From assembly GCA_947169285.1 (NCBI GenBank), contig CAMVPB010000005.1, positions 545 through 64,544 on the forward strand: a stretch of 64,000 nt of DNA, read 5' to 3'. The notes under the pieces were generated by a model, which worked only from the letters and a program-made list of their open reading frames with translations, had not been told where the DNA came from and ran no database searches. Below are positions 1-62,235 of the stretch, piece after piece. The translations under genes were made by a program, and so were the position numbers. Origin of the DNA: an uncultured bacterium. Its GTDB lineage: Bacteria > Bacillota_I > Bacilli_A > RF39 > UBA660. The first letter of the stretch is position 1. Every line of letters starts with the position of its first letter.

Positions 1-1644
<1,644 letters not shown>

Positions 1645-2599: not shown

Positions 2600-2651
2600 A
2601 AAATAGAAGTCACAGTTAACAATAAAAATTGTGACTTTTTAAATGGTAAAA

Positions 2652-2875
2652 TATACTCCCACAAAGAGCATGTTTTTTTACTTTTTTATATCAGGATAAG
2701 AGGTGCGGTATCGCAACACTAGAATTTAAAGATAAATTCTAGTGTTTTTGTGACACCACTTATTTTGCACTTGCAAAATTGCTCCCACAGAGCATTTTAG
2801 TTTAATGAATCTCTTTATTTAAAAGAAATAAATGCTCCCGTTTTTGATTTTTTTAGAAAATCTGTGGGAGCAAAT
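2652..2875 (+). repeat. Copy 1 of a ~220-bp interspersed structured noncoding repeat (the 220-bp repeat family)
   Basis: Aligns with 7316..7533 (inverted), 8566..8776 and 13237..13426. It contains the ctcccacaaagagc / gctcccacagagc / tctgtgggagc motifs and a hairpin acactagaattt...aaattctagtgt followed by a T-tract. Confidence 0.8.
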
Positions 2876-3107
2876 TTTCATTTAATTATCTCTTTTTTTA
2901 TCAATTTGAGAAATATTTAGACTAGTAAAAAACAAAAGATTGTGTTATATTGTATTTAGAAATGGTATTTATTAGTTGTTCTTTTAGATATAAGTGTTCA
3001 AAATAGGCTCTTGTATCGCACCATTATGGATTAAACAAACAACAAGTTTGTTTTTTTATTTGGTATAAAATTAACATTTTAGTAAATCATATTAGTGGAG
3101 GACTAAT

Positions 3108-3536
3108 ATGGGTGAAAATATAAATGCTTTAGATGAAATACACAAAGGATCATGCATGGGTTGTGACGCTATTAGTTTTGTTTTAGATAAAGTTGAAGAT
3201 AGAGAATTTAAAAGTGAACTTGAAAGTGAGTTTAATTTTTATAAATCTATTGAAAGTAGGGTAGACAAAATTTACTCAAAGTATGATGATGGGGAACCGC
3301 ATGAAACTGGAATTATGACTAAAGCTATGACTTGGTCAGGAATTGAAATGAAAACAATGAGTGATCATAGTAATTCTAAAATAGCTGAACTTTTGCTTCA
3401 AGGTGTTAACATGGGAATAATTGAGGGAAGAAGAATACTTAATAAAAAGAAAATAAATAACGAAGTAAGTAAAATAGTTTCAGAATATGTTGAAACACAA
3501 GAAAAATTTATGGAAACACTAAAAAGATATTTATAA
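3108..3536 (+). CDS. Hypothetical protein, 142 aa
   Basis: ORF with RBS (gtggaggact) upstream. No confident family assignment. Confidence 0.45.
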   Translation: MGENINALDEIHKGSCMGCDAISFVLDKVEDREFKSELESEFNFYKSIESRVDKIYSKYDDGEPHETGIMTKAMTWSGIEMKTMSDHSNSKIAELLLQGVNMGIIEGRRILNKKKINNEVSKIVSEYVETQEKFMETLKRYL

Positions 3537-3602
3537 TATCACTATAGAAAAGTGATATTTTATTTTTTTTAAAATATGTGTTAATATAATATTGGTGATA
3601 AT

Positions 3603-3962
3603 ATGAAAAAAGGTTTTACATTAGTTGAAGTATTAGTAGTAATAGTGCTTTTGTCAATAATAATTGCAATTGCCATCCCTTCTATATCAAAAATTAGAGA
3701 GAATATAATTGACAAAGAAGAACAAACACAAATAAAAGAAATTAAATCAGCAGCATCTTTTTATGCAAGAGATGAAAAAAAATCAAACTGTTGTATAACT
3801 GTTTCTGAATTAGTATCAAAAGGATATTTAAAAGGTAATGAAGAAAGTAAAGTAATTAATCCTAAAACTCATGAAGAAATAAATGTTAAAATTTATATAG
3901 ATAACAACAAAAAAATAACATATGATTATAGTGAAACTTGTGGAAATTGTGAAAACAATTAA
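3603..3962 (+). CDS. Prepilin-type N-terminal cleavage/methylation domain protein (type IV pilin/pseudopilin-like), 119 aa
   Basis: N-terminus MKKGFTLVEVLVVIVLLSIIIAIAIPS is the classic G|FTLxE prepilin leader plus hydrophobic helix. It is a lone gene with no pilus assembly neighbours. Confidence 0.6.
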   Translation: MKKGFTLVEVLVVIVLLSIIIAIAIPSISKIRENIIDKEEQTQIKEIKSAASFYARDEKKSNCCITVSELVSKGYLKGNEESKVINPKTHEEINVKIYIDNNKKITYDYSETCGNCENN

Positions 3963-4016
3963 TATTTAACTTGCTAATTATTAAATTTTATGTTATATTA
4001 CTATTGCTTTTGAAAT

Positions 4017-4092
4017 GGCGGTATTGGTGAAGTGGTAACACGGTAGATTGTGGCTCTATTATGCGTGGGTTCGATTCCCACATACCGCCCCA
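4017..4092 (+). tRNA. tRNA-His (anticodon GTG), with the extra G-1 and encoded CCA
   Basis: A cloverleaf was read by hand. Acceptor is GCGGTAT/ATACCGC with G-1 opposite C73. Anticodon stem is GTAGA/TCTAT and the loop TTGTGGC gives anticodon GTG. The T-arm is GTGGG-TTCGATT-CCCAC. Confidence 0.85.
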
Positions 4093-4248
4093 TATTGAAA
4101 TCCCGTCGAACTTTTATAGTTTGACTTGGCATATATAAGGTTTTTCGATAGAAAAACTTTTTTTGTTGTTTATAAAAGAGTGTTTAGTAATACTAAAAAC
4201 AAATAAATTATATAAAAAACATAAAATAATGGTATAATATTAATTAAT

Positions 4249-5166
4249 TTGGAGATGGAAACTATGTATAAGACAAATATTAATTTGAATTTATATAAAA
4301 CATTTTATGATGTAGCTAAATATGGTAGTATTTCAAAAGCAGCACAGTATGGATTTACATCACAACCTGCAATAAGTAAATCAATTAAAAAACTTGAAGA
4401 AGAACTTGGAGTTAAACTATTCTATAGAAATTTAAATGGAGTAGAATTAACAGATAAAGGTAAAGAACTATTATATTTTGTTGAAAAGTCATATAGTAAT
4501 TTAGTTATAGCAGAAAGAACTATGCTAGAAACTGAAAATCTTGAAAGAGGTAAACTATCTATTGGTATGCCATCTAATATTGGGTCATTTTACTTATTTG
4601 ATAAAATAATTAATTTTCATAAAAAGTATCCTAAAATAGAAATAACAATAATAACAGGTTCAACTTCACAATTAATTAATTTACTAGATTCTCACAAAGT
4701 TGATTTTGTTATAGATACTTCTCCAATTAATATAAAAAAGAATGATGAAATTAAAATAGCAAAGTTAGATGAAGTGAGTTATTGCTTTGTTGCTAAAAAT
4801 GAAAAATATAAGAATATAACTACATTAAGTGATTTAAAAGATAAACCTTTAATATTACCAATACCAGGAACAGCTAATAGAAAAGATTTAGATGAACTAT
4901 TAATAAATAAAAAAGTAGAAATAGAAAATGTTATAAATATACATACTAGTGAAATGATAATTTCAGCTGTGAAAAAAGATTTAGGAATAGGTTATATAAT
5001 TTATAATCTTATTGAAGATGATATTAAAAATAATGAATTAATAAAATTAGATATTAAAGAAGAATTACCGACTGTTCAAATAAATATTGTTTACAACAAA
5101 AATTTCTTAACAACTGCTCCTAAGAAATTTATTGAAGATTATATAGATAATAATTTCAAATTATAG
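4249..5166 (+). CDS. LysR-family transcriptional regulator (likely true start at the Met at 4264)
   Basis: N-terminal HTH region LNLYKTFYDVAKYGSISKAAQYGFTSQPAISKSIKKLEEELGVKLFYR is typical of LysR. The C-terminal substrate-binding portion is ~300 aa. A hairpin terminator follows at 5215..5250. Confidence 0.8.
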   Translation: MEMETMYKTNINLNLYKTFYDVAKYGSISKAAQYGFTSQPAISKSIKKLEEELGVKLFYRNLNGVELTDKGKELLYFVEKSYSNLVIAERTMLETENLERGKLSIGMPSNIGSFYLFDKIINFHKKYPKIEITIITGSTSQLINLLDSHKVDFVIDTSPINIKKNDEIKIAKLDEVSYCFVAKNEKYKNITTLSDLKDKPLILPIPGTANRKDLDELLINKKVEIENVINIHTSEMIISAVKKDLGIGYIIYNLIEDDIKNNELIKLDIKEELPTVQINIVYNKNFLTTAPKKFIEDYIDNNFKL

Positions 5167-5277
5167 AATCTATATTAAAAAGTTATACCTATAATTTAAA
5201 ATAATATAAAACATGAAAAACGGATATTTGTAAAAAATATCCGTTCATTTTATAATTTATTTGAAAGGAAGAAAATT

Positions 5278-6267
5278 ATGATTAAAAATTTAGGAACATT
5301 TAAAGATTTTTGCGATGGGACTTTAAAAACAGTTTTTGATGTTGGCAATAAAAAAATAATTGAAATGTCATTATTATTTAATAAAGCAGATAAAGATGTT
5401 GTATGTGTACCAACGCATCATTTCTGTAATTTAGGATGTAAGATGTGTCATTTAACTAATAAAGGATTAAATAAAAAAATGACTCCAATAAATTCAGAAG
5501 ACTTTATGGAATGTTTATATAAGTCACTAACAAAAGATAATATAAGGAAAACTGATAAAGATAAATTGCTCATATCATTTATGGGAGTGGGGGAACCTTT
5601 ATTAAATCTTAAATTAATAGAAGAAGTTTATAAAAATGAAAATATAATAAAAGAAAAATTGGGGTATAAAGATATAGGATATGCTATTGCGACTATGATG
5701 CCTAATGATAATATTTTAAAATTAAAAGAGATGGTTTGTAGATTAAATATACCACTTAAAGTTCATTTTTCATTGCATACTCCAATTGATAATGAAAGGC
5801 GTAATTTAATACCAAGCACAAACGTTTCTGTAGAGGATGCATTAGCCTATTTAGTTAATTATAGAAATAGTTTACAATCAAATAAAGAATTGATGGAAAA
5901 ATATATTAAATTACACACTACAAATGATCCGATTGAGATTCATTATACTTTAATCAAAGGAGTAAACGATCAAAAAGAGGAATTGGCTAAATTATGCGAA
6001 TTACTACATAAGTATAATATTCCAATTAAGTTTATTAGATTTAATCCAACACAAGATATGCAAAGAAGTGAAAATGAAGAAAAATGGGTCAATGAAATTT
6101 CTAATAGTGTGCCTGGACTTAGGATTAAAACATATTCTCCACCTGGTAAAGAAGTAGGTAGTTCTTGTGGTGAATTTACAAAACATTATTATCATGAAGA
6201 AATTGAAACTGAAGCTCAAAAAGAAGAATTTGAAAAATGGAAAGTAAAACATTTAGTGCTTGAATAG
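5278..6267 (+). CDS. Radical SAM enzyme of the RlmN/Cfr family (rRNA/tRNA adenine C2/C8 methyltransferase-like), 329 aa
   Basis: It has the CNLGCKMC CxxxCxxC cluster motif, an upstream Cys in VVCVPT and a C-terminal GSSCGEF. Blocks ISFMGVGEPLLNL, HFSLHTPIDNERRNLIP, IHYTLIKGVNDQ and IKFIRFNP parallel RlmN blocks, including both mechanistic cysteines. Confidence 0.7.
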   Translation: MIKNLGTFKDFCDGTLKTVFDVGNKKIIEMSLLFNKADKDVVCVPTHHFCNLGCKMCHLTNKGLNKKMTPINSEDFMECLYKSLTKDNIRKTDKDKLLISFMGVGEPLLNLKLIEEVYKNENIIKEKLGYKDIGYAIATMMPNDNILKLKEMVCRLNIPLKVHFSLHTPIDNERRNLIPSTNVSVEDALAYLVNYRNSLQSNKELMEKYIKLHTTNDPIEIHYTLIKGVNDQKEELAKLCELLHKYNIPIKFIRFNPTQDMQRSENEEKWVNEISNSVPGLRIKTYSPPGKEVGSSCGEFTKHYYHEEIETEAQKEEFEKWKVKHLVLE

Positions 6268-6281
6268 GAGGAAAAAATAAT

Positions 6282-6680
6282 ATGAATAAAGAATATATGG
6301 AAGTAAGAGAATTTCATAAAGCGTTTAATCATCCAGTTGCTGATAAGCCAACACAATTAACGTTTGAAAGGGCTAAAAAAAGATATTTGTGGATGCTAGA
6401 AGAAATAAATGAATTTATTGAAGCCGTTAAAAATAAAGATATAGTAGAACAAGCAGATGCAATGATAGATACAATTTATTTTGCCCTTGGAACTTTAGTG
6501 GAGATGGGAATTGAACCAGATGCTTTGTTTGAAATAGTTCAAAAAGCAAATATGAGTAAATTATTTCCTGATGGCAAACCTCATTATAATGAAATGGGAA
6601 AAGTAATTAAACCACAAAATTGGGAAGATCCGCATCCCAAATTAGAGCTAACCATAAAAAATATGAATAATTCTAATTAG
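6282..6680 (+). CDS. MazG-like all-alpha nucleoside triphosphate pyrophosphohydrolase family protein, 132 aa
   Basis: Acidic helix pattern LEEINEFIEAVKNKDIVEQADAMIDTIYFALG is typical of the MazG/HisE-like NTP-PPase fold. Confidence 0.5.
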   Translation: MNKEYMEVREFHKAFNHPVADKPTQLTFERAKKRYLWMLEEINEFIEAVKNKDIVEQADAMIDTIYFALGTLVEMGIEPDALFEIVQKANMSKLFPDGKPHYNEMGKVIKPQNWEDPHPKLELTIKNMNNSN

Positions 6681-6775
6681 AAAAGATATTATAAAAAAAT
6701 AAGATACTTTAATAAAAGATTTTAAGGATTGGTTTTATTTAAAAAGATACTAAAACATAGTATAATGTTATTGAG

Positions 6776-7297
6776 ATGAGCAATATGGAAACAATAGTAA
6801 TAAACAATAACAATTTGACTGATAAAGATATTAATGAATATGGTAAAAAAGTAAGAGCAGTTTTATTTGATGAAGAAAAAATATTAATATCTTGTTATGG
6901 TGGAGTTATATTATTGCCTGGTGGAAGTATTGATAAAAATGAAACTTCAGATCAAGCAATTGTAAGAGAATTAAAAGAAGAAACAGGTATTATATATAAT
7001 ATAAAAGACTTGAAAAAGTTACTAGTTGTTAAGCATTATCAACAAAATTATCTGACTAGAAATGAATCCATTAAAAATAGATTAATAAGCACTGAATATT
7101 ATATTGGAAAATATCAAGGAATTAATTTAGATGAAACTCACATGACAGATAAAGAATTAAAAGATAACTTTAATTTGAAATTAGTAAATATAAATGAATT
7201 ACAAAATTTATTAAATAAAATAACAAATAATCCAAGAAAAAATTTTTTTGATGAAGAAATAAGAGAAGTTATTCACACTTTAACTCTTAAAAAGTAA
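6776..7297 (+). CDS. NUDIX hydrolase, 173 aa
   Basis: Nudix box GGSIDKNETSDQAIVRELKEETGI fits Gx5Ex7REUxEExGU. Confidence 0.8.
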   Translation: MSNMETIVINNNNLTDKDINEYGKKVRAVLFDEEKILISCYGGVILLPGGSIDKNETSDQAIVRELKEETGIIYNIKDLKKLLVVKHYQQNYLTRNESIKNRLISTEYYIGKYQGINLDETHMTDKELKDNFNLKLVNINELQNLLNKITNNPRKNFFDEEIREVIHTLTLKK

Positions 7298-7315
7298 TAA
7301 CATTATAAAATAATA

Positions 7316-7533
7316 TGCTCCCACAGATTTTTTAAAAAAATCAAAAATGGGAGCATTTATTTCTTTTAAATAAAGAGAATAATTAAGTTAAAATGCTTTG
7401 TGGGAGCAATTTTGCAAGTGCAAAATAAGTGGTGTCATAAAAATATAGGTATTTCCTAGAAATATTTATATTTTGACACCTCATACTTATCCTGATATAA
7501 AAAAGTAATATTTTATGTATTCTATAGGAGCAA
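7316..7533 (-). repeat. Copy 2 of the 220-bp repeat family, inverted relative to copy 1
   Basis: The reverse complement aligns with 2652..2875 over about 190 bp (gacaccacttattttgcacttgcaaaattgctcccaca...aaatctgtgggagc). The internal hairpin has a different sequence but the same position and is followed by a T-tract. Confidence 0.8.
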
Positions 7534-7555
7534 AAAAATATTATTTAAAATCTTA

Positions 7556-7609
7556 TTGAAATTAATATTTGTTTTATATATAATATTAAGACATAAGGGA
7601 GGTTTTAGG
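7556..7609 (+). promoter_or_regulatory. Conserved promoter plus RBS module (TTGAAA-17-TATAAT ... acataagggagg), duplicated at 10518..10571
   Basis: Near-identical ~50-nt sequences precede two unrelated ORFs. The six-frame track reads them as a shared fake N-terminus MKLI.VL.IILRHKGGF. Confidence 0.6.
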
Positions 7610-8353
7610 ATGTTAAAATATTTGAATTATGATAATTATAACGTAGATGAAGAACTTTTAAAAATTGAAAATTGTGAAGAAGCAGAAATAGTATTAGAAC
7701 CAAGGAATAAAAAATGTTTATTTATTTTAGGGATGCTATTTGTAAATGGAGTTAAGATAAAGATCTTGAATGAAAATGATTTGAATCTTGAAGAAACAAA
7801 TAAATCATTTTCTATGATGCCATATGTATGGAGTAAAATAGGTGATAATAGTTTTCCAGCACCTGATTATTCTAATGTAAGAACCGAAATGGATAGAAGA
7901 GTAGAAAATGTTAAAAGAATGGGTTGTAAAGTAAATAGAATAGAAAACAATCCAATAGATAATAAAATATTTTTGATTTGTCCTGTAAGAAATGCTACTG
8001 AAGAACAAAGAAAATGGATTGAAAACTTTACTAAAGAGAAATATAACAACGGATATATAATTCATGCTCCACATCTTCATACAAGACAAACGGATTTGTT
8101 TGGCGGATATGCTATATGCAAACAAAATGCAGAGGCAGTAGCTACTTCTGAAGAAATTTACATATACTATGATCAATCAAGTACAGGTAGTGTATTTGAT
8201 TTAGGAGTGGCTTATGCATTACATAAACCATTAAAAGTATTAAATAAAGAAGAAATAGTTTTTAATGAAGATGATTTCATAGATAATATTGTAAAGACTT
8301 GGCCTTATAATTTAAAGACAAAAGTAAGAACTTTATCTAAAGAAAATATGTAA
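7610..8353 (+). CDS. Hypothetical protein with C-terminal nucleoside 2-deoxyribosyltransferase-like (NDT/Rcl-like) domain, ~247 aa from internal ATG
   Basis: Motifs KIFLICPVRNATEEQ and DQSSTGSVFDLGVAYALHKPLKV resemble the NDT-family GP-loop and DxGTxFExG(Y/A)A blocks. The start is placed after the conserved promoter/RBS module. Confidence 0.5.
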   Translation: MLKYLNYDNYNVDEELLKIENCEEAEIVLEPRNKKCLFILGMLFVNGVKIKILNENDLNLEETNKSFSMMPYVWSKIGDNSFPAPDYSNVRTEMDRRVENVKRMGCKVNRIENNPIDNKIFLICPVRNATEEQRKWIENFTKEKYNNGYIIHAPHLHTRQTDLFGGYAICKQNAEAVATSEEIYIYYDQSSTGSVFDLGVAYALHKPLKVLNKEEIVFNEDDFIDNIVKTWPYNLKTKVRTLSKENM

Positions 8354-8504
8354 AGAGAATCTGCACTTATGTTTTAAAAAATTGACTTTGCAAAATCAAA
8401 AAAATATGATAATATTAGTTCAGTTAGTAATATATACTACTATTTTAAAGCATTATCTTGTTGCTCTACACAATTAAGATACGTGCTATAATGTTATTAG
8501 CGAT

Positions 8505-8565
8505 TAGTTGTATTAGCAACTTTCTTTAAAAGCAATAAGTTTTAAATCATCTTATTTATTGCTTA
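8505..8565 (+). repeat. Short palindromic repeat (agttgtattagcaact ... gcaataag-N-cttatttattgc), second copy at 14497..14557
   Basis: Direct sequence similarity between the two loci. Both lie just downstream of a gene. Confidence 0.55.
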
Positions 8566-8776
8566 CTAAAGAGCGTGTTTTTTTAACTATTTATATGAGA
8601 GCTGCGGTATCACAACACTAGAATTTGTTTGTAAATTCTAGTGTTTTTGTGACATCAATCTTATTTTGCGCTTGCAAAATTGCTCCCTAGAAATAATGTA
8701 CTTAATATTTATTGCCTTAAATACTAATGAAAATTGTTCCCAAAATGTCATTTTTTTGAAAAATGCGAGGGAGTAA
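8566..8776 (+). repeat. Copy 3 of the 220-bp repeat family
   Basis: Shares aaagagcgtgttttttt, gcggtatcacaacactagaattt...aaattctagtgtttttgtgaca, ttgcgcttgcaaaattgctccc and a gagggag right end with copies 1 and 4. Confidence 0.75.
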
Positions 8777-8875
8777 CTTTTTAACTGCTTTCCAAAATAT
8801 TTGACTTATTTTTTTGTTTACAATCATAATAAATATACTTATAATATTTTTGTAAAAAGGTGTATTATGCAAAAA

Positions 8876-8970
8876 GATAATATGCTAAAGCGCTAAATAA
8901 AGAAATTATTTATTACACTGATTTAAAAGAAGAAAATTTAGAAACTCAAATTCGAAAAAAATTAGTCTAG
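8876..8970 (+). pseudogene. Remnant 3' end of an NDT-like gene (YAKALNKEIIYYTDLKEENLETQIRKKLV*), duplicate of 11545..11640
   Basis: About 90% nucleotide identity to the 3' end of the frameshifted NDT-like gene at 11292..11637. The following attttaaagagtgttatttgatattaaaggag junction is shared as well. Confidence 0.6.
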
Positions 8971-9008
8971 ATTTTAAAGAGTGTTATTTGATATTAAAGG
9001 AGAAAATT

Positions 9009-9752
9009 ATGATGAATGTAAACAAAGAATTAATTGAGTATGTAGAAAATAATATAAAACCCATATATGTAAACAACAATTATGCTGGTCATGGTTGGGA
9101 ACATATTCAAAATGTAATAAGTCGTAGTTTTGAGTTAATGGAAAAATTCAAGTTAGAAATTAACCCTAATATGGTTTATGTTATAGCAGCATATCATGAT
9201 ATTGGTTATAAAGAAAATCCTGAAAATCATGAACAAGTATCAAGTGAAATGTTTTTACAAAATAAAGAAATTCAACATTTTTTTAGTGAAGAAGAAAATA
9301 GAATAATTGCTGAAGCTATAGTAGATCATAGAGCAAGTTTAGAATATGAAGCAAGAAGTGTCTACGGAAAATTAGTTTCCTCTGCTGATAGAGCTATTGA
9401 TGTTAATAATATGTTAGAAAGGTCAATTTCTTTTCAATATGAAAAGCATAAATTAGAAAATCCAACGATTCAAGATATTATTGAATATTCTTATAAGAAA
9501 CTATCAAGTAAATATGGAAATGGTGGATATGCTAAAATGTATTTTCAAGATGATAAATATTTAGAATATTTAAAAAAAGTGAATTTATTATTTTCAGACA
9601 AAGAAGAATTTATTAAAGCAGAGATGAATATTATTGCTAATAATTCACAATTATTACAAAAAATATATGTGAATCCAGAATTGAGAACATTATTAGAAGA
9701 TAAAGAAAAGAACATAAGTACTAAAAGAGTATATATAAAAAATAAAAAATGA
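9009..9752 (+). CDS. HD-domain metal-dependent phosphohydrolase, ~247 aa
   Basis: H...HD signature (GHGWEHIQNV ... VIAAYHDIGY). Start ATG at 9009 after RBS aaaggag; the track's TTG start at 8988 is less likely. Confidence 0.65.
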   Translation: MMNVNKELIEYVENNIKPIYVNNNYAGHGWEHIQNVISRSFELMEKFKLEINPNMVYVIAAYHDIGYKENPENHEQVSSEMFLQNKEIQHFFSEEENRIIAEAIVDHRASLEYEARSVYGKLVSSADRAIDVNNMLERSISFQYEKHKLENPTIQDIIEYSYKKLSSKYGNGGYAKMYFQDDKYLEYLKKVNLLFSDKEEFIKAEMNIIANNSQLLQKIYVNPELRTLLEDKEKNISTKRVYIKNKK

Positions 9753-9798
9753 AAACATAAATTTATTGATTATGTTAGGGTAAATATAGGAGGATTTT

Positions 9799-10503
9799 AT
9801 GAAAAAAATAACAGAGTTATTTATGGCTTATAAAAACGATTTTGCTAATAGTAATTTAAAAGATAATGAATTAATAGAGTTTGTAATGCCTTTTAACTTT
9901 TCTGATTTAAGCGATGTTGTTAATGGAAATATATTTTTAAAAAGCTATAATCAAAAAATATCAATAAAAGAATCATTAGATTTATTAGATTTATCAATAA
10001 AAAATAATAATAGGATAAGAGTGTGGACTAGTCATGTTGACCCTGATTATTATTTGTTTTTATTATTTATATGTTTTTATGTAAAGAATAAGATTGAATG
10101 TTTAGAAGTCTTTTATTCTGATGAATACAAAAGTGAATGTACAAGTACCGGAATGATGACTTCAAAAGAATTAGATAAATTATCATTGATGGGTCATAAA
10201 ATAGAAAAAAATGAAATAGAAGAATATGCTAATAAATGGGAGTCTTTAATTCAAGATGGAAGTAAAATACATATTTTCGAGAATAATGAATTAATTGGTG
10301 TGCCATATGATTATATTTATGAACAAATAATAGATTTCATAAAAAAAGAAAACAAAGTTAAAGTTGTTGAAATAGTTTTTGAATTTTCAAAAAAATATAA
10401 TATTGATGTTGATTATTTAATAAAGCAACTAATAGAAGATAAAAAGATTAAAGTATTAGAAAGCAATGAAATATTTTCTAAAATCATTGTTGGATTAAGT
10501 TAA
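9799..10503 (+). CDS. Hypothetical protein, 234 aa
   Basis: ORF with RBS (taggagga). No recognisable motif. Confidence 0.45.
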   Translation: MKKITELFMAYKNDFANSNLKDNELIEFVMPFNFSDLSDVVNGNIFLKSYNQKISIKESLDLLDLSIKNNNRIRVWTSHVDPDYYLFLLFICFYVKNKIECLEVFYSDEYKSECTSTGMMTSKELDKLSLMGHKIEKNEIEEYANKWESLIQDGSKIHIFENNELIGVPYDYIYEQIIDFIKKENKVKVVEIVFEFSKKYNIDVDYLIKQLIEDKKIKVLESNEIFSKIIVGLS

Positions 10504-10571
10504 TCTTAAATGAAATTGTATTGAAATTAATAAAAGTGTTGTGTATAATATTGAGACATAAGGGAGGATTT

Positions 10572-11189
10572 ATGGATTTTATTAAAAAAAATGAGTCTTG
10601 TGAAAAATTTTATTCTGTTGACTATGATAAAGAGAAGTTAAATGAAATTTTAGAAAAGTTAAAAAACTATAATTATACGGCAATTGGTAAAGGCGAGATG
10701 GGTGGAGTAACTAATTGGCCTGCTACAGAGAAAAATATAAAAAGAAGAGTTACATCTTTCTTTAATGCTTGTATGCATGACCAAAATGCAACATTACATC
10801 CAGAGACAATAGTGCGTCATGATGATGACTATGTTTCATATGAATATTCTTATAATAAATTACCGGATCTATATGATTATATTGATTTAATTGTAAATAC
10901 ACAAAACCCTTTTAAACATAAAAGATTGTTTAAGAATTTTAGTGATGCTTATATTTGCTTTCACTGGGATCAAATAGTATTAGAAGGATTGCTAAATTAT
11001 GCAAATTCCCCAGAATTAACAAATCATAATTCTATAGAAAATAGTGAATCAAGTAAAGAAGAGTATGATTATAAAGGATTAAATGAATTATATATAGAGA
11101 CATTAAAATGTTTCAATTTCAATTTAATAGCAGTCAAAGAATATTTAAAAGAACCAAAATCAGTGAATGTTTTATCTTTAAAAAAATAA
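10572..11189 (+). CDS. Hypothetical protein, ~205 aa (start at internal ATG after the conserved promoter/RBS module)
   Basis: Preceded by the same TTGAAA-17-TATAAT ... taagggagg module as 7610. No recognisable family. Confidence 0.45.
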   Translation: MDFIKKNESCEKFYSVDYDKEKLNEILEKLKNYNYTAIGKGEMGGVTNWPATEKNIKRRVTSFFNACMHDQNATLHPETIVRHDDDYVSYEYSYNKLPDLYDYIDLIVNTQNPFKHKRLFKNFSDAYICFHWDQIVLEGLLNYANSPELTNHNSIENSESSKEEYDYKGLNELYIETLKCFNFNLIAVKEYLKEPKSVNVLSLKK

Positions 11190-11291
11190 ATTATTTGGTC
11201 ATAGTATAAAACAAAAACTATGGCTTTTTAATTGTTATATTAAAATTAGAATCATGATATAATAAAAAAGTAATTTGAAAGTTGGTGTGAA

Positions 11292-11637
11292 ATGAAAATA
11301 ATAACAGTTTGTGGAAGTTTAAGATTTTTTAAAGAAATGATGGAAATAACTGAAAAGAAGGAATTAGAGGGTAATTGTATGTTAGTTCCAATTTATAATC
11401 CTTTAAAACCAAATAAAGATAATTATAGTGAGAAAGGATGCACTTATGTTGGATAAGATGCATAAAGAAAGAATTAAACTATCTGATGCTATTTTAGTTG
11501 TTAATGTTAATAACTATATTGGTGATAGTACTAAAAGTGAAATAGAATATGCTAAATCATTAAATAAAGAAATTATTTATTACACTGATTTAAAAGAAGA
11601 AAGCTTAGAAACTAAAATTCGAAAAAAATTAGTTTAA
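11292..11637 (+). pseudogene. Frameshifted nucleoside 2-deoxyribosyltransferase-like gene (two overlapping ORFs 11292..11457 and 11428..11637)
   Basis: N-terminal part MKIITVCGSLRFFKEM... and C-terminal part LSDAILVVNVNNYIGDSTKSEIEYAKSLNKEIIYY together fit the NDT-family pattern but lie in different frames. Confidence 0.5.
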
Positions 11638-11677
11638 ATTTTAAAGAGAGTTATTTGATATTAAAGGAGGAATTGAT

Positions 11678-12277
11678 ATGAAATTAATTTTAACATCTAG
11701 AGTGTTCGGTGATGCTATTGCAACTGAAAAAGTATTAAATGAATTAAATATGGATATTTCAAAAGCAAAAATACTTTTAATAGCAACTCCAAGATTGCCT
11801 TATGAAGGGCCAGAAAGTTCTTTTGAAAGTTTAGTTTATTGGGGATTTAAAGAAGAAAACATCGTAATATTTGATCATAATAAAGCAGAAGAATATTGTA
11901 ATTTAGATATAGATATTATTTATGTTACAGGAGGAAACACTTTTACAGGTTTAAAATTACTTAAAGAATGCAGATTTGATAAAGAAATTATTAAATATAT
12001 AAATAATGGCGTAATCTATTTAGGAAAAAGTGCTGGTTCACATATAGTATCTAAAAATATTGAACATGTTATAGGATTTGATCCAAATGAAGTAGGGTTA
12101 ACTGACTTTGAAGGGTTAGGATTATTTAATGGAATATTAGTTTGTCATTATAGTGATGAAAGAAAACCATGTTATGATAGATTATTATCAGAAAAAAAGT
12201 ATCCTGTGTATACTTTAACTGACCAAGATATGATAGTGTATGATGATAGTTTAGTAAAAAAATTAAAAAAGTATTAA
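11678..12277 (+). CDS. Peptidase S51 (dipeptidase E-like) family protein, 199 aa
   Basis: IIYVTGGNTFTGLKLL ... GVIYLGKSAGSHIV matches the S51 GGNTF / SAGS serine motif. Confidence 0.55.
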   Translation: MKLILTSRVFGDAIATEKVLNELNMDISKAKILLIATPRLPYEGPESSFESLVYWGFKEENIVIFDHNKAEEYCNLDIDIIYVTGGNTFTGLKLLKECRFDKEIIKYINNGVIYLGKSAGSHIVSKNIEHVIGFDPNEVGLTDFEGLGLFNGILVCHYSDERKPCYDRLLSEKKYPVYTLTDQDMIVYDDSLVKKLKKY

Positions 12278-12367
12278 GAGAAGATTTTACAAATAAAAAT
12301 ATTTGTGTTAATATGTGATTAGAAAAATCTTATATTTTTCTTTATGAGTTTAGCAATAGTTAAATTA

Positions 12368-12403
12368 TTGCCCCAGAAGGAAATCCGCTCGAACTTTTCG
12401 AGC
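12368..12403 (+). other. Degenerate direct repeat of the tRNA-His 3' end plus downstream hairpin (att-like); gctcgaacttttcgagc is a perfect hairpin
   Basis: gccccaGAAGGaaatccGCtcgaactttt versus gccccaTATTGaaatccCGtcgaactttt at 4087..4114 matches at about 25 of 29 positions, in the same orientation. Confidence 0.55.
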
Positions 12404-12465
12404 TTATATACAACTAATTCAGAAATGGATTAGTTTTTGGTTGTTAGAAACTATCCTAAGAAAGG

Positions 12466-12732
12466 ATGGTATTTATGGTAAATATTATTAAGCAAGAAGT
12501 TGTTATTGAAGAATCATTAAAGAAGAAGTTAAAACTAATATGTGAGTTTTCAAATACTACTTTAAAAATAATAAATGGTAGTATAAGAAAAATTGAAAAT
12601 AATAATCAAATTAGAGAAATAACTGAAGAAAATAGGAATGGATTCGATTTAATAGAAAAAGCAGAAAAAGAAATAAAATATATGGAAGGCCACAAAAAAC
12701 GCTTACAAAATAAATTATTAGTCATAGTTTAA
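12466..12732 (+). CDS. Hypothetical protein, 88 aa
   Basis: ORF with upstream RBS (aggatgg). Lysine/glutamate-rich with a coiled-coil-like composition. Confidence 0.4.
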   Translation: MVFMVNIIKQEVVIEESLKKKLKLICEFSNTTLKIINGSIRKIENNNQIREITEENRNGFDLIEKAEKEIKYMEGHKKRLQNKLLVIV

Positions 12733-12827
12733 AATATAATAAAAACTATGACTTTTTAAATGGGATATACTTGACTTTTTAAGAAAAAAGCAGTATAATA
12801 TGGCCACATTTTAAGGAGGAAATTAGA

Positions 12828-13163
12828 ATGAGAACTCGTGTACCTGATAATCCACATCCAGTACCAATGCCGGATATGGATAATTTTAGCGAAGAAGAAA
12901 TAGATGATTTGTTAATAGACAATTTTTTAAAGAAATTAGAAGTTCATTCACATACGCCTAGAAATCCGCATCCAGTACCAATGCCGGATATGGATAATTT
13001 TAGCGAAGAAGAAATAGATGATTTGTTAATAGACAATTTTTTAAAGAAATTAGAAGTTCATTCACATGCGCCTAGAAATCCGCATCCAGTACCAATGCCA
13101 TCAATAGAAACAGATTATCAATCAAAAAAAGTTAAAAGAAGAATTAGAAGATTACTTAAATAG
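12828..13163 (+). CDS. Tandem-repeat protein (repeated 38-aa unit RNPHPVPMPDMDNFSEEEIDDLLIDNFLKKLEVHSH.P), 111 aa
   Basis: ORF with RBS (aaggagga). It contains a perfect 114-bp tandem duplication. Confidence 0.5.
   Translation: MRTRVPDNPHPVPMPDMDNFSEEEIDDLLIDNFLKKLEVHSHTPRNPHPVPMPDMDNFSEEEIDDLLIDNFLKKLEVHSHAPRNPHPVPMPSIETDYQSKKVKRRIRRLLK
12852..13103 (+). repeat. Tandem direct repeat, 114-bp unit x ~2.2, near-identical copies
   Basis: Units start at 12852, 12966 and 13080. Copies are identical except for single bases (acgcct versus gcgcct). Confidence 0.85.
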
Positions 13164-13236
13164 TTGTATGTTTTGACATGTAGCAAGGTTTGAAAAAAAT
13201 CTTGCTTTTGTTTGGGACTTAGATGATCAAAAATTT

Positions 13237-13426
13237 TTGCTCCCTCGAAAAGCATTTTTTATGCTATTTTTAATATCAGGATAAGAGGTGGTATCACATT
13301 ACTAAGATTTACCCATAAATCCTAATAATTTGTGACTCCAAACTTATATTTTATGTTTTTTTGACTCAAACGCTAACAACTTTTACTCCCAAAATGACTT
13401 TTTTTTGAAAAAGTTGAGGGAGCAAA
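13237..13426 (+). repeat. Copy 4 of the 220-bp repeat family (most diverged)
   Basis: ttgctccctcgaaaagcatttttt ... atatcaggataagaggtg ... a hairpin, then ttgtgac ... gttgagggagcaaaa. The end motifs co-vary (ccctcgaa/ttgaggg here versus cccacaaag/ctgtggg in copy 1). Confidence 0.7.
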
Positions 13427-13560
13427 AAATATAAATATAATAAAAATAATTGAAGAATTTTATAAAATGAATAGTAATTTTTTCAAATTATAAGATATAA
13501 CTTTAAATTTGACTTTAAGTCTCTGCTTTGATATAATATATAGCTATTAAGAGGGGGTTT

Positions 13561-14400
13561 ATGAGTGAAATTAATAAAGTTTTAAATGATGAATCAAAAA
13601 ATGATAAAGAACTAATTAAAGAGCTTAGTGTTTACGTTAAAAATCATAAGAATAAAAAGTTGCCAATAAATAAAGAATTTGTTAAAGGTATAATTGATAT
13701 ATCTTTGAGAAATAGTGAAGTTGACTTTAAAAAAATAGAATTTGTTAATGACATGAGTATTGGAGCTTCTTGGTTACCTGAAAGTATGGGGTTAGAATTT
13801 AATCTTACAGGAGCATTAAAATATGCTAGATTATTGAAAGATTATAGGTTTCATTCGAAAGTTGGTGATAACGATATATTTTTATATTATTCAGTTATAG
13901 AATTTGTAATTCATGAACTCACTCACGCAAGACAATATTACGTTAATTTGATAGAGAAAAACGAGGTTTATAATTCTTGTGAAGAATTAATTGAAAAAAA
14001 ATATGATGTATACCGAGTAAACCACGATAAAGTATTGATAGAAAGATATGCGCATTTAAGAGGTCATACGCTTGCATACGAGGTATTATCTTATATTTAT
14101 TCTATGGAGCAAATTCAAGAATTTAGAAGAATAATATATGTTTATTTGTTAATGGGATACAAAGTAAATCATAACGGGGATACTATTTCTGCTTTAGATA
14201 AATACAATGAATTAATGAAAGAAAACTCATTGCCAATAGTTAATATTGATTCTAATGATGATATGACATTATATGATAGACTTTATTTAGGACTTCCAAT
14301 AAGTACATTAGAATATCATAGATTAAAGCTCTTATATGCAGATATTTGGCATAATGATGACAAAACTCAAAGAGTAAAAACATTAATTAATAAATTATAA
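13561..14400 (+). CDS. Hypothetical protein with HExxH motif (IHELTHARQ), possible zinc metallopeptidase-like, 279 aa
   Basis: ORF with RBS (gagggggttt) and an HELTH motif. No further family assignment. Confidence 0.4.
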   Translation: MSEINKVLNDESKNDKELIKELSVYVKNHKNKKLPINKEFVKGIIDISLRNSEVDFKKIEFVNDMSIGASWLPESMGLEFNLTGALKYARLLKDYRFHSKVGDNDIFLYYSVIEFVIHELTHARQYYVNLIEKNEVYNSCEELIEKKYDVYRVNHDKVLIERYAHLRGHTLAYEVLSYIYSMEQIQEFRRIIYVYLLMGYKVNHNGDTISALDKYNELMKENSLPIVNIDSNDDMTLYDRLYLGLPISTLEYHRLKLLYADIWHNDDKTQRVKTLINKL

Positions 14401-14496
14401 AAGGATTTTAAAAAAGATATTGATTAACACAAACCAATATTTTTTCTTTTGAAAAGACTTTGACATTTATATAATTTATGATATTATGTTTATAGA

Positions 14497-14557
14497 AATT
14501 AGTTGTATTAACAACTTTCTTTAAAGATGGTAAGTTTTAAATCATCTTATTTGTTGC
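14497..14557 (+). repeat. Second copy of the short palindromic repeat seen at 8505..8565
   Basis: ttagttgtattaacaactttctttaaa...taagttttaaatcatcttatttgttgc, compared with 8505..8565. Confidence 0.55.
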
Positions 14558-14841
14558 CCAAATAAAAAAATAATGTCGCATAATGCGACTTTTTTTATTG
14601 GGGCTATAAATAAAATTATTCTTATAAAAAAGTGTTTTTGAATTATTTTGACTATAATATATATAGAGGAGACATAATATGAATAATGGAATAAAAAATG
14701 AAACTGAAATTGTTAATAGCATAAATGGCAAGAAGTTTAATGAATTAAATTAATAATTTTTGCTTTTAAATGTAAAATTTTTAAATCTTTAATATTTTTT
14801 TAATAAAAGATAGTAAAATTATTTTTGAAAGGAAGAAAAAT

Positions 14842-16596
14842 ATGAAAAGAATAACAAAAAATATAATTATGAGTATAGTATTAATTATATGTGTGATTGG
14901 AATGATACTTACAATTAATTATTATTCATCAAGTTCAAACAATAATGATGCTAGTGGTCAAATTCAAATGGGAGGGACTCCACCAGAGATGCCATCTGGT
15001 GAAAATGATAGTAATATGGGAACACCTCCAGAAAAGCCAGAAGGAAATGCAAACAGTGAATTTCAAAATACGCCTCCGGAGATGCCATCAAATGATAATT
15101 CGAATATGAAAACTCCACCGGAAATGTCACTTGAAAATAATACTGAATCATCGGTCTTAAAGTATCTTTTAATTGGTGGTATTAGTTTATTGGGAAGTTT
15201 AGATATATTATATTTAATATTATCTAAATTTAACAAAAGAACTTTAAAAGAAACTTTTTCATCATCTGATAAAATAGTAATATATTTTTTGGGAACAATT
15301 ATTTTAACTGGATGTTTAACTTTTGGAGTAAATCGTTTATCTAATAATATGATTTCATCAAATGCTAATCAAAATATGCCTGGTGGTGGAATGAATAGTA
15401 GGTCCGTTTCATATTCATCTCAAAAGGAAATAACAAGTGATGAAACAATAACAAATGGAAATTATACTTCATCATCATCTGATGAAAATGCAATTTTAGC
15501 TACTGGAGATATTGAAGTAAATATTTCTAATGTAACTGTCACAAAAACTGGAGACTCTGATGGAGGAGATTCTACAAGTTTTTATGGAACTAATTCTGGT
15601 GTACTTGCTAAAAGTGGGGCAAATGTAACAATAAAAAATGCTACTATTGAAACTAATGCAACTGGAGCTAACGGTGTATTTAGTTATGGTGGCTCTGCTA
15701 CTACAAGTAATTCAACAAGTGATGGAACAACTATAAATATAAGTGACTCAAAAATAACTACAACTAAAGATAACTCTGGAGGTATTATGACTACTGGTGG
15801 AGGTATTATGAATGCTACTAATCTAGAAATAAATACTGCAGGTACTTCTTCTGCAGCAATTAGATCTGATAGAGGAGGAGGCACTGTAAATGTTAATGGT
15901 GGAACTTATAAAACAACTGGACAAGGTTCACCAACCATTTATTCAACTGCAAATATTACAGTAAAAAATGCAACACTTGAAGCTACTGCATCAGAAGGAG
16001 TCGTTATCGAAGGAAAAAATAGTGTAGTATTAGATAGCTGTACTTTAACAGATACAAATAATAAATTAAATGGACAATCTACTACATATAAAAATATATT
16101 CTTATATCAATCAATGAGTGGAGATGCTGATACTGGAACTGCAGAGTTCACTGCCAAAAATAGTACAATCACTACAAATAAAGGTGACACTTTATATGTT
16201 ACAAATACAACTGCCTCTATAACTCTAGAAAATAACACTATAGTTAATAATGATTCTACTGGTAACTTTTTAAGAATTCAAAAAGATTCTTGGGGAAAAA
16301 GTGGTTCAAATGGCGGAGATGTAACGTTAAATCTCACAAATCAAAAAGCAATAGGCAATATAGTGGTTGACTCAATATCAACTTTAAAAATGACTGTTAA
16401 TGATAATTCTTATTATGAAGGCTCTATTAATAGTGATAATACAGCTAAATCAATCGCCATAGTATTAGATAAAACTTCTAAAATAAAATTAACTTCTAAT
16501 AGTTATGTAACATTGTTTGAAAATGCTGATTCAACTAATAGTAATATAGATTTTAATGGATATAAACTATATGTTAATGGTTCATCTATAAATTAA
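14842..16596 (+). CDS. Secreted/cell-surface repeat protein, 584 aa (N-terminal TM/signal, TPPEMP proline-rich repeats, Ser/Thr/Asn-rich beta-solenoid-like C-terminal region)
   Basis: Hydrophobic N-terminus with repeated GTPPEMPS / NTPPEMPS / KTPPEMS motifs. A second TM segment is followed by a long T/S/N/G-rich region with repeated NxT(I/V) patterns. Confidence 0.6.
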   Translation: MKRITKNIIMSIVLIICVIGMILTINYYSSSSNNNDASGQIQMGGTPPEMPSGENDSNMGTPPEKPEGNANSEFQNTPPEMPSNDNSNMKTPPEMSLENNTESSVLKYLLIGGISLLGSLDILYLILSKFNKRTLKETFSSSDKIVIYFLGTIILTGCLTFGVNRLSNNMISSNANQNMPGGGMNSRSVSYSSQKEITSDETITNGNYTSSSSDENAILATGDIEVNISNVTVTKTGDSDGGDSTSFYGTNSGVLAKSGANVTIKNATIETNATGANGVFSYGGSATTSNSTSDGTTINISDSKITTTKDNSGGIMTTGGGIMNATNLEINTAGTSSAAIRSDRGGGTVNVNGGTYKTTGQGSPTIYSTANITVKNATLEATASEGVVIEGKNSVVLDSCTLTDTNNKLNGQSTTYKNIFLYQSMSGDADTGTAEFTAKNSTITTNKGDTLYVTNTTASITLENNTIVNNDSTGNFLRIQKDSWGKSGSNGGDVTLNLTNQKAIGNIVVDSISTLKMTVNDNSYYEGSINSDNTAKSIAIVLDKTSKIKLTSNSYVTLFENADSTNSNIDFNGYKLYVNGSSIN

Positions 16597-59717: not shown

Positions 59718-59794
59718 GGCGATGTAGCTCAGCTGGTTAGAGCGCACGGTTCATACCCGTGAGGTCGTGAGTTCGATCCCCACCGTCGCTACCA
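59718..59794 (+). tRNA. tRNA-Met (anticodon CAT), elongator type, CCA encoded
   Basis: Hand-folded cloverleaf. Acceptor GGCGATG/CGTCGCT, D-arm GCTC-AGCTGGTTA-GAGC, anticodon stem CACGG/CCGTG with loop TTCATAC, T-loop TTCGATC. Confidence 0.85.

Positions 59795-60336: not shown

Positions 60337-62235
<1,899 letters not shown>

Follow-up and report, generated by a model that had tools for sequence, protein, structure and literature searches.

The window, i.e., the whole 64-kb stretch of DNA analysed here, carries a gene for a radical-SAM methylase (rSAM) that resembles both RlmN and Cfr and lies beside a LysR-family regulator. RlmN is the C2-methyl synthase of A2503 in 23S rRNA and of A37 in tRNA, and Cfr and its variants Cfr(B,C,D,E) are C8-methyl synthases of A2503 that confer PhLOPSA resistance. 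The preliminary description had envisaged either a Cfr-like resistance determinant or a novel RNA C-methylase. Does rSAM belong to one of these types, and if not, on what does it act?

The catalytic apparatus of RlmN and Cfr is present in full, as the preliminary description had read from the sequence. Cys50, Cys54 and Cys57 form the cluster motif (CNLGCKMC, i.e., CxxxCxxC), Cys43 lies upstream in VVCVPT, and Cys297 lies in SSCGEF. In phmmer alignments to solved structures, the cluster cysteines align, Cys43 corresponds to RlmN C118, and Cys297 corresponds to RlmN C355 and to the 'AACGQ' motif of Cfr. Among 65 family members of 27 to 59% identity, there is no variation at C50, C54, C57, C297 or G298, and C43 shows at least 90% conservation; both motifs are kept in 117 of 119 close homologues. 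The RlmN model matches the protein with an E-value of 4e-27. A Foldseek search with the AlphaFold model (pLDDT 87, pTM 0.89) ranks structures of RlmN and Cfr first (E 1e-9 to 6e-13), with RlmN as the best structural match (TM 0.54 to 0.65); the best sequence match among solved structures is Cfr (9p0p, E 7e-14). Given the E-value of the RlmN model and the Foldseek ranking, a chance resemblance is excluded. The protein combines a CxxxCxxC motif within a radical-SAM fold (the partial TIM-barrel core of RlmN) with a carrier/resolving cysteine pair, the features of class A enzymes. These features place it in the RlmN/Cfr superfamily (class A radical-SAM methylases) as a divergent and uncharacterised member that has kept the two mechanistic cysteines.

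However, rSAM is neither RlmN nor Cfr. At 329 aa it is shorter than the reference proteins (349 to 379 aa), a difference noticed earlier that is explained by the lack of any counterpart to the first ~77 positions of the RlmN profile. The profile alignment begins at position 78 of 355, and the alignment to RlmN 3rf9 begins at residue 89, with rSAM residue 12 already inside the core. In the AlphaFold model, a 4-strand sheet alone precedes the cluster loop, whereas RlmN carries an N-terminal domain of ~77 residues and Cfr has an N-terminal domain as well. Identity is 22 to 23% to RlmN, Cfr, Cfr(C) and Cfr(D) alike. The protein scores 95 bits against a curated cutoff of 290 (TIGR00048) for RlmN, and 75.2 against 530 (NF000424) and 69 against 550 (TIGR04432) for Cfr, thus falling 3- to 8-fold short; against a further RlmN model (NF008396) it scores 65.9 for a cutoff of 633. 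A neighbor-joining tree built from 55 sequences over 280 columns separates the RlmN and Cfr references from every short-type protein in 100 of 100 bootstraps, so that rSAM clusters neither with housekeeping RlmN nor with Cfr. No close relative was found among the 72,556 plasmids of PLSDB; each of the 241 matches was either a genuine cfr or rlmN gene or a radical-SAM relative still further away, none more than 27.6% identical, the best being cfr(D) and cfr (25 to 27% identical). Unlike Cfr, rSAM was found neither on plasmids nor beside resistance genes. Given the scores below the curated cutoffs, the lost domain, the position in the tree and the plasmid results, orthology of rSAM to RlmN or Cfr is rejected, and a Cfr-like resistance role is very unlikely. 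The family to which rSAM belongs is, on the phylogenetic evidence, a separate and uncharacterised short branch. Net charge and pI, used as a proxy for RNA binding, did not differ between rSAM and RlmN. No second rlmN-like gene was found within the 64-kb window or in the fetched loci.

The accessory setting beside a LysR gene, also proposed earlier, is borne out by the regulator directly upstream, a serine recombinase, repeated modules and variable gene content (Table 1). Small unrelated genes surround rSAM, spaced by the repeated intergenic modules. By blastn, the segment common to two near-identical relatives (L006 and L129) comprises only positions 4087 to 6266, with its left edge at the 3′ end of tRNA-His. 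Positions 6267 to 7290, which cover the MazG-like gene, are missing in both relatives, and the Nudix gene is part of this insertion. The rest of the window consists of chromosomal housekeeping genes. A mobile plasmid or phage origin was rejected after megablast of positions 4000 to 12500 matched no phage and, in a single plasmid, only the tRNA. An anti-phage defence system was likewise discarded, as PADLOC gave only a marginal pVip match (E 0.0017, 15.9 bits) that stems from the common radical-SAM core.

Table 1. Features of the rSAM locus, in window coordinates
Feature	Position	Strand	Details
Serine recombinase	115-1644		
tRNA-His (GTG)	4018..4092	+	ARAGORN and Rfam
LysR-family transcriptional regulator	4249..5166	+	HTH_1 5.7e-19, LysR_substrate 5.9e-30
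Inverted repeat, 11-bp arms, AACGGATATTT-GTAAA-AAATATCCGTT	5219..5245	.	LysR-rSAM spacer; scored terminator-like
Promoter-like site TTGTAA, 17 nt, TATAAT	5228..5256	+	-35 hexamer inside inverted repeat
Short-type class A radical-SAM methylase (rSAM), 329 aa	5278..6267	+	ATG start; Cys50/54/57, Cys43, Cys297; without N-terminal RlmN/Cfr domain
MazG-like all-alpha NTP pyrophosphohydrolase (PRA-PH family)	6282..6680	+	PF01503 3.7e-23; own AGGAGG
Nudix hydrolase	6776..7297	+	PF00293 2e-10
Weak nucleoside 2-deoxyribosyltransferase-like ORF	7610..8353	+	PF05014 E 0.0015, below cutoff; repeat D5
HD-domain phosphohydrolase	8988..9752	+	PF01966 3.7e-7

The LysR gene is the sole widely conserved neighbour of rSAM. 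Of the genome-derived loci, 47 of 69 have it immediately before rSAM in the same orientation, as do 27 of 80 metagenome loci, and the two genes diverge in step (47 to 98% identity). The core of the inverted repeat in the spacer, GATATTT-N5-9-AAATATC, is found again in many homologous loci (L002 to L008, L022, L030, L039, L041, L042, L046, L050 and L059), with its offset unchanged at ~55 nt within a spacer of ~111 nt. We infer that this repeat is a candidate LysR operator; alternatively, it could act as a weak terminator of the LysR gene. The promoter-like site that overlaps it is a consensus match only, and the count of such matches in the region does not exceed the shuffled expectation.

What the family is linked to elsewhere bears most directly on the substrate. 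The proteins of 280 to 340 aa to which rSAM belongs form a large family, to which Pfam and PHROGs give no functional name, in gut Bacilli and RF39-like MAGs and in phages. At E ≤ 1e-10 it comprises 318 clusters at 50% identity, from human-gut and rumen metagenomes and jumbo phages. Judging from the 68 to 100% identity of its best 120 relatives, the rSAM gene is under strong purifying selection. The clade of the window is chromosomal and occurs in small-genome gut bacteria; in one lineage the gene precedes rpoB/rpoC in a housekeeping neighbourhood, with an rRNA-type MTS methyltransferase close by, and in relatives L002 to L005 it is flanked by resolvase and Mob_Pre genes. Most members stand alone. 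Fusions of rSAM to a dCMP deaminase (491 to 509 aa), however, are common; they account for 9 of the best 120 matches and occur in 20 of 80 metagenome loci as well as in L001, L015 and L068. One protein of 33% identity (P0269) has the reverse order, deaminase before rSAM, which indicates an independent fusion. Two triple fusions (L021 and L164) join rSAM, deaminase and dUTPase; their dUTPase part retains all five trimeric-dUTPase motifs, and their deaminase part has lost the catalytic Glu and one zinc Cys. Since these triple fusions keep an intact dUTPase yet a degenerate deaminase, the pattern suggests that the task of the fusion partner is to deliver dUMP. A further fusion (P0135) joins rSAM to a Nuc_deoxyrib_tr domain (3.8e-8). 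One of the fusion proteins has been named 'dCMP deaminase' by JGI; the names of cluster members are otherwise uninformative.

Adjacent genes repeat this link. In the window, the MazG-like gene begins 14 nt past the rSAM stop codon, and its product matches PDB 3nl9 (3e-30) and Deinococcus radiodurans DR2231 (7e-8), which according to published work is dUTP-specific. The MazG-like protein is predicted to convert dUTP or dCTP to the monophosphate. Its homologues adjoin rSAM in about 12 other loci (L002 to L005, L008, L009, L130 to L132, L204, L206 and the phage loci L082 and L083). In L015 a dUTPase gene follows the fusion gene, and in L206 the order is LysR-MazG-fusion.

Furthermore, phage relatives at ~30% identity keep the link to dUMP enzymes. 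Phage 'Fe-S-cluster redox domain-containing' proteins (PHROG 27142; COG0820-like), exemplified by B3FJU2 of phage 201phi2-1, by those of Psa21 and Phabio and by gp170 of Tunturi_5, are likewise short, lack the N-terminal domain and fall in the same family as rSAM in profile and fold searches. They are 16 to 31% identical to the window protein and lie mostly in jumbo-phage replication modules, whereas the clade of the window is bacterial, LysR-paired and often deaminase-fused. In phage locus L082, the order is class II RNR, HNH, MazG, dCMP deaminase and rSAM, with the contig ending 1.6 kb past rSAM; two close relatives of this phage (L208 and L211) keep RNR, MazG and deaminase, the rSAM gene being absent. 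The deaminase gene lies directly upstream of rSAM in L101 and nearby in L072, L083 and L102, and a dUTPase gene lies directly downstream in the L093 group.

Fusion to dCMP deaminase and dUTPase makes an RNA substrate doubtful, because these enzymes act on free deoxynucleotides. Of the earlier proposal of a novel RNA C-methylase, the divergent RlmN/Cfr-superfamily methylase thus stands, and its RNA substrate does not fare well. Rather, rSAM is probably a methyl synthase of the RlmN type whose substrate is a free pyrimidine deoxynucleotide and not rRNA or tRNA. The best overall explanation, to which we assign a probability of about 45%, is that rSAM acts on dUMP and provides folate-independent synthesis of dTMP; conversion of dUMP to dTMP, with its presumed site of methylation, carries the same tentative weight. 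A little more tentative is the broader proposal that the family may constitute a third, independent thymidylate synthase of the radical-SAM type, requiring neither folate nor flavin, and supplying dTMP to gut Bacilli with reduced genomes and to some phages, either as their only route or as one induced through LysR. The physiological role of rSAM is likewise one that we infer. ThyA and ThyX are the only known kinds of thymidylate synthase, and both require folate.

The proposed steps follow the established chemistry of RlmN. A methylase that had lost the N-terminal RNA-recognition domain would receive dUMP from the adjacent MazG-like pyrophosphatase, working on dUTP or dCTP, or, in relatives, from a fused or adjacent dCMP deaminase or dUTPase. 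SAM would first methylate Cys297, and a second SAM would be cleaved at the [4Fe-4S] cluster held by Cys50, Cys54 and Cys57. The resulting 5′-deoxyadenosyl radical would take a hydrogen from the S-methyl group, and the thiomethylene radical would add to the base at its C5=C6 bond. Cys43 would then resolve the covalent enzyme-nucleotide adduct, leaving the methyl group in place, so that two SAM would be spent on each dTMP. LysR would switch the rSAM gene on, probably via the conserved palindrome over the -35 region. The known class A enzymes methylate only C2 or C8 of adenine in RNA. Besides, a nucleophilic thiomethylene radical might, on chemical grounds, prefer C6 of uracil over C5, and a bulk supply of dTMP sits awkwardly with radical-SAM methylases, which are slow and use two SAM per product. 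A gene fusion, moreover, is evidence of a functional link and not of the reaction.

Another reading is a product other than dTMP, such as 6-methyl-dUMP, 5-methyl-dCMP or another C-methylated dNMP, destined to be a modified DNA precursor (in phages), an antimetabolite, a free modified base or a regulatory molecule. The fusions and adjacencies speak for a nucleotide substrate equally in this case, and phage replication or nucleotide modules contain many of the relatives. Distant phage relatives coexist with thyA and folA or with thyX, which suggests a non-redundant product there. The Nuc_deoxyrib_tr-like fusion P0135 also resembles the enzyme pairing of the mildiomycin and bacimethrin pathways, in which an enzyme modifying C5 of a pyrimidine NMP works with an N-glycosidase that releases the free modified base. 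Such a product is nevertheless unlikely. The clade of the window is chromosomal, highly conserved and, in one lineage, embedded in a housekeeping setting, a distribution that a core metabolite fits better; no kinase, polymerase, transporter or immunity gene is conserved beside rSAM, and no anti-phage defence family was matched. Improbable, too, is a regulatory or structural link in which rSAM modifies or activates the deaminase, the dUTPase, another protein or a small molecule. The function of rSAM is deduced from context only, its family lacks a functional name in Pfam and PHROGs, and the degenerate deaminase of the triple fusions illustrates that a fused domain can be non-catalytic. Yet most members stand alone, so that the partner cannot be an obligatory substrate, and the two RlmN-type cysteines, both kept, argue for transfer of a methyl group to an sp2 carbon.

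An adenine C-methylase of RNA (or DNA) with altered target recognition, which would include C8 methylation of A2503 as by Cfr, is distinctly improbable. Among characterised proteins, RlmN and Cfr come closest to rSAM, and their catalytic apparatus is fully kept; the surroundings of the gene are variable and include a recombinase, with resolvase and Mob_Pre genes around it in L002 to L005, and in one lineage it neighbours the rRNA-type methyltransferase and rpoB/rpoC. Against this stand the absent N-terminal domain, scores 3- to 8-fold under the cutoffs and a position outside the RlmN and Cfr clade (100 of 100). Fusion to a dCMP deaminase or dUTPase would also make no sense for an rRNA methylase. 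All cfr variants are at most 27% identical to rSAM, the 72,556 plasmids yielded no close relative, and the fetched cfr loci have no dedicated LysR partner, unlike rSAM. The Cfr-like resistance version retains scarcely any probability. The rlmN locus of Staphylococcus aureus (L124), in turn, has an rsmB/stp1 setting, whereas the partners of the rSAM family are LysR, MazG, dCMP deaminase and dUTPase.

The likeness of rSAM to ThyA and ThyX is one of context alone, i.e., its linkage to the makers of dUMP (dCMP deaminase, dUTPase and the MazG-like dUTPase). That context is of the thymidylate-synthase type, with dCMP deaminase fusions in both orders, a dUTPase fusion, and MazG or dUTPase adjacency. 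Neither ThyA, which is folate-dependent, nor ThyX, which depends on flavin and folate, is related to rSAM in sequence or fold, and unlike them rSAM would take its methyl group from SAM via S-methylcysteine and radical chemistry, without folate. Probes for thyA, thyX, folA, tmk and tdk found none of these genes near rSAM in ~1.9 Mb of bacterial flanking DNA, which is uninformative at a coverage of ~1% of each genome (8 to 10 kb on either side of each rSAM gene). The same probes did detect their targets in phage loci: in 3 of 47, a distant family member lies within 8 kb of thyA and folA (L109 and L115) or of thyX (L112). Because thyA or thyX is nearby, that phage branch is not a simple replacement of thymidylate synthase. 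In a control scan of 80 phage dCMP-deaminase loci, thyX lay within 8 kb in 7 to 9 and thyA in none. Since so few control loci have thyX nearby, the proximity of thyA or thyX is uninformative, and the idea that rSAM occupies the thymidylate-synthase slot of phage modules was dropped, the control making the absence near rSAM non-significant.

If rSAM does make dTMP from dUMP and SAM, it would add a third means of carrying out a step on which DNA synthesis depends and help explain the thymidylate supply of small-genome uncultured gut bacteria and some phages. Neither antifolates nor inhibitors of ThyA and ThyX would affect such a third thymidylate synthase. It would also offer a way to tolerate trimethoprim/sulfonamide or fluoropyrimidine stress. 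Class A radical-SAM methylation would then extend from RNA adenines to free nucleotides. Even with another product, rSAM stands for a large, conserved and unnamed enzyme family whose fusions give a clear substrate hypothesis; we found no paper on a radical-SAM dUMP or dCMP methylase or on the short-type family. For resistance surveillance, the gene should not be flagged as cfr-like.

The genes further downstream in the window touch on nucleotide metabolism less consistently. The Nudix, deoxyribosyltransferase-like and HD-domain neighbours were considered as core partners of rSAM and set aside, being unconserved across loci. The Nudix gene, of which no homologue lies beside rSAM in other loci, is possibly an accessory nucleotide-sanitising gene. 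Whether the deoxyribosyltransferase-like ORF is part of the rSAM unit is uncertain; translation probably begins at the ATG that follows the repeated promoter/RBS module. Homologues of the HD-domain gene lie near LysR-rSAM in two other loci, directly upstream of LysR in L022 and nearby in L047.

The radical-SAM gene and its LysR-type neighbor were found where the preliminary description had placed them, and the cysteines noted there were confirmed: Cys50, Cys54 and Cys57 (CNLGCKMC), an upstream Cys43 (VVCVPT) and the C-terminal Cys297 (SSCGEF). In phmmer searches of solved structures, residues 12-306 aligned with Cfr (9p0p, E 7e-14) and RlmN (3rf9, E 5.5e-11). Cys43 corresponds to C118 of RlmN, Cys297 to C355, and Cys50/54/57 to the CxxxCxxC motif; by alignment, Cfr and RlmN have the same two extra cysteines and cluster motif. 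The AlphaFold model, with 23 homologues as input, was confident (pLDDT 87.1, pTM 0.89). In fold it most resembled RlmN-type enzymes and Cfr (TM 0.54-0.65); other radical-SAM folds were much more distant. The enzyme belongs to an already known mechanistic class, the RlmN/Cfr type.

The protein scored 95 bits against the NCBI curated RlmN model (cutoff 290) and 69-75 bits against the Cfr models (cutoffs 530-550). All profile alignments began at about position 75-80 of the models, indicating that the N-terminal domain present in both RlmN and Cfr is missing. In a 55-sequence tree, references from annotated plasmid records (cfr, cfr(C), cfr(D) and four rlmN genes) split from all such short-type proteins in every one of 100 bootstrap replicates, leaving the window protein outside both groups; its identity to every reference was 22-23%. 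Orthology with RlmN or Cfr was therefore rejected. Tblastn against 72,556 plasmids found no close relative; the 241 records retrieved were true cfr/rlmN genes or more distant relatives (≤27.6% identity). When the locus was compared with plasmids and phages by megablast, only the tRNA matched. Given these scores, the tree and both searches, the Cfr-like resistance proposed in the preliminary description finds no support beyond superfamily membership. Judged by sequence, this is not a cfr-like resistance gene; the gene is real and interesting, but the functional direction proposed for it was wrong.

Instead, the window protein represents a branch of RlmN/Cfr-type methyl synthases that is large and has no name. 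When 5.8 billion proteins were searched, 679 matched; the best 120 of these were 68-100% identical, almost all of ~329 aa, and had no precomputed Pfam domain. Among 1.84 billion cluster representatives, 318 clusters reached E ≤ 1e-10, of which 77 reached E ≤ 1e-30; leaving aside fragments and a small number of fused or extended proteins, the best 150 were 265-360 aa long and lacked the N-terminal domain. In 65 family members with identities of 27-59%, E29, C50, C54, C57, M102, G105, S165, H167, R174, H222, N230, C297 and G298 were invariant, and C43 was at least 90% conserved. These cysteines indicate that the RlmN-type two-cysteine apparatus is under selection across the whole family. The close clade comprised 66 loci in a species-level genome collection, nearly all from uncultured gut 'Bacilli', 'Tenericutes', 'Mollicutes' and 'Erysipelotrichaceae' MAGs, with two complete chromosomes of ~1.5 Mb; the metagenomes with matches were human-gut and other host-associated ones. 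Members at a greater distance (29-43% identity) were common on viral contigs (47 loci) and also occurred in cultured jumbo phages, labelled 'Fe-S-cluster redox domain-containing protein'.

The main finding is that genomic evidence ties this family, as far as sequence can tell, to dUMP supply. Nine of the best 120 relatives are fusions (~494-503 aa) whose C-terminal part is a eukaryote/T4-type dCMP deaminase, and such fusions occur at 20 of 80 metagenome loci and in loci L001, L015 and L068. In P0269 (33% identity) the deaminase precedes the radical-SAM domain, which points to an independent fusion event, and P0135 carries a nucleoside 2-deoxyribosyltransferase-like domain. Two loci, L021 and L164, encode 677-aa fusions of radical-SAM, dCMP deaminase and dUTPase domains. 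The dUTPase retains all five trimeric-dUTPase motifs, whereas the deaminase has lost its catalytic Glu (HAT versus HAE) and one zinc-binding Cys (PDYEC versus PCxxC) and looks like a pseudo-enzyme domain kept within the fusion; the deaminase motifs are intact in the other 33 fusions. Since substituting a dUTPase for an inactivated deaminase makes sense only if the partner serves to deliver dUMP, this arrangement favors dUMP as the substrate. The replacement of deaminase by dUTPase also argues against dCMP being methylated first and deaminated later.

In the window, a MazG-like pyrophosphatase gene starts 14 nt past the radical-SAM stop; solved relatives of its product are 3nl9 and DR2231, the latter a dUTP-specific enzyme. 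MazG-like homologues flank the gene in about a dozen other loci, and the order is LysR-MazG-fusion in L206 and LysR-fusion-dUTPase in L015. The link is kept in phage relatives at ~30% identity: in phage L082 the gene order is ribonucleotide reductase (class II), homing endonuclease, MazG-like gene, dCMP deaminase and radical-SAM gene, a deaminase gene lies directly upstream in phage locus L101, and a dUTPase gene directly downstream in the L093 group. The L082 reductase is split by an intein (L082:3723-7017), and the gene after it encodes an HNH/AP2 homing endonuclease. In L073 (5329-6387 and 9644-10204), a relative lies near genes for a Cas12f/TnpB-like protein, an SNF2 helicase and GTP cyclohydrolase I.

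In our view the window protein is a credible candidate for a thymidylate synthase that works without folate. That its substrate is a free pyrimidine deoxynucleotide has a probability of about 0.65-0.7; that the product is dTMP is more tentative, at slightly under even odds. On the established RlmN mechanism as a model, a first SAM would methylate Cys297, a second would be cleaved at the cluster, and the 5′-deoxyadenosyl radical would activate the S-methyl group. The resulting radical would add across the pyrimidine C5=C6 bond and Cys43 would resolve the adduct, converting dUMP to dTMP by C5 methylation. If dTMP is the product, the pathway role would be categorically new; our literature search, incomplete in coverage, found no account of a radical-SAM dUMP/dCMP methylase or of the short-type family.

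Attack at C6 of uracil rather than C5 is conceivable, and to our knowledge only adenine C2 and C8 are methylation sites of class A enzymes. Against the dTMP route, two SAM per dTMP and a slow enzyme would be expensive. Furthermore, thyA plus folA, or thyX, lay within 8 kb of a distant member in 3 of 47 phage loci, so that branch at least is no simple thymidylate-synthase substitute, and in close relatives of phage L082 the module is present but lacks the radical-SAM gene. ThyA, ThyX, FolA, Tmk and Tdk probes found no match in ~1.9 Mb of bacterial flanks, only ~1% of each genome. In a control of 80 phage deaminase loci, a thymidylate synthase was nearby in only 7-9; its absence beside deaminase-linked radical-SAM genes thus carries no weight.

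Positions of the features discussed (window coordinates unless a locus is named)
Feature	Position	Strand	Remark
LysR regulator gene	4249..5166		directly upstream of radical-SAM gene
Inverted repeat	5219-5245		in ~111-nt LysR/radical-SAM spacer; overlaps -35 of promoter-like site
Radical-SAM gene	5278..6267	+	ATG start, 329 aa
Repeat pair	7537-7607 ~ 10502-10572		-35/-10/RBS block
Repeat pair	8873-9010 ~ 11540-11677		intergenic module
Repeat pair	8484-8562 ~ 14479-14557		intergenic module
Repeat pair	8708-8776 ~ 13357-13425		intergenic module
Repeat pair	2696-2758 ~ 8595-8657		hairpin plus T-run
LigD-type primase-polymerase/phosphoesterase	19527-20879		non-homologous end joining
Phosphoketolase	21500-23806
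Triple fusions	L021:4291-6324; L164:3065-5098		677 aa

The LysR gene is the sole widely conserved neighbor: 47 of 69 genome-derived loci and 27 of 80 from metagenomes have it immediately upstream of the radical-SAM gene in the same orientation, and the two sequences diverge in step. The inverted repeat between them, whose core GATATTT-N5-9-AAATATC is found again with an identical offset in many homologous loci, is probably the LysR operator. In two near-identical relatives, L006 and L129 (96-97% DNA identity), the stretch in common with the window is precisely 4087-6266, from the tRNA-His end to the radical-SAM stop codon; sequence matching 7291-7503 comes next. These boundaries set LysR-radical-SAM apart as a self-contained unit and mark 6267-7290, with the MazG-like and Nudix genes, as an insertion in the window strain; that block, absent from both relatives, was gained or lost together. 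In the L137-L162 clade (72-74% identity), the gene has no LysR neighbor; DHHW/MBOAT genes lie on one side of it and, on the other, an MTS-type methyltransferase gene and then genes whose size (~1200 aa) would fit rpoB/rpoC. This setting suggests constitutive, housekeeping-like expression. In the human-gut lineage L002-L005 (about 7600-15600), the LysR-radical-SAM pair comes with a MazG-like gene of double length (235 aa). Around this group lie resolvase genes, a Mob_Pre relaxase and a large serine recombinase, a mobilisable setting on contigs of 0.08-1.26 Mb.

At window positions 2600-14600, repeated intergenic modules lie between small, unrelated genes that are all encoded on the + strand, and the stretch looks like a cassette-type variable region; L006 and L129 also carry these modules, in both orientations. 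The 'MKLI..LRHKGGF' N-termini common to the ORFs starting at 7556 and 10521 are translated promoter/RBS sequence. Within ORF 12828-13163, a 114-nt stretch is duplicated almost exactly in tandem (12849-12962 / 12963-13076), so that the peptide block RNPHPVPMPDMDNFSEEEIDDLLIDNFLKKLEVHSH appears twice, and a small ORF just upstream of tRNA-His (3603-3962) has a type IV pilin-like N-terminus (MKKGFTLVEVLVVIVLL). Elsewhere the window has the content of an ordinary chromosome (AspRS, SerRS, acetate kinase, RecD2, phosphoketolase, LigD), in a genome of 25% GC. Of two large serine recombinases, the one at 115-1644 covers no more than the end of the Resolvase catalytic domain and is thus probably truncated or mis-started; the other (60355-62235) closely follows tRNA-Met (59718-59794), a position that suggests an integrated element at the window's right end.
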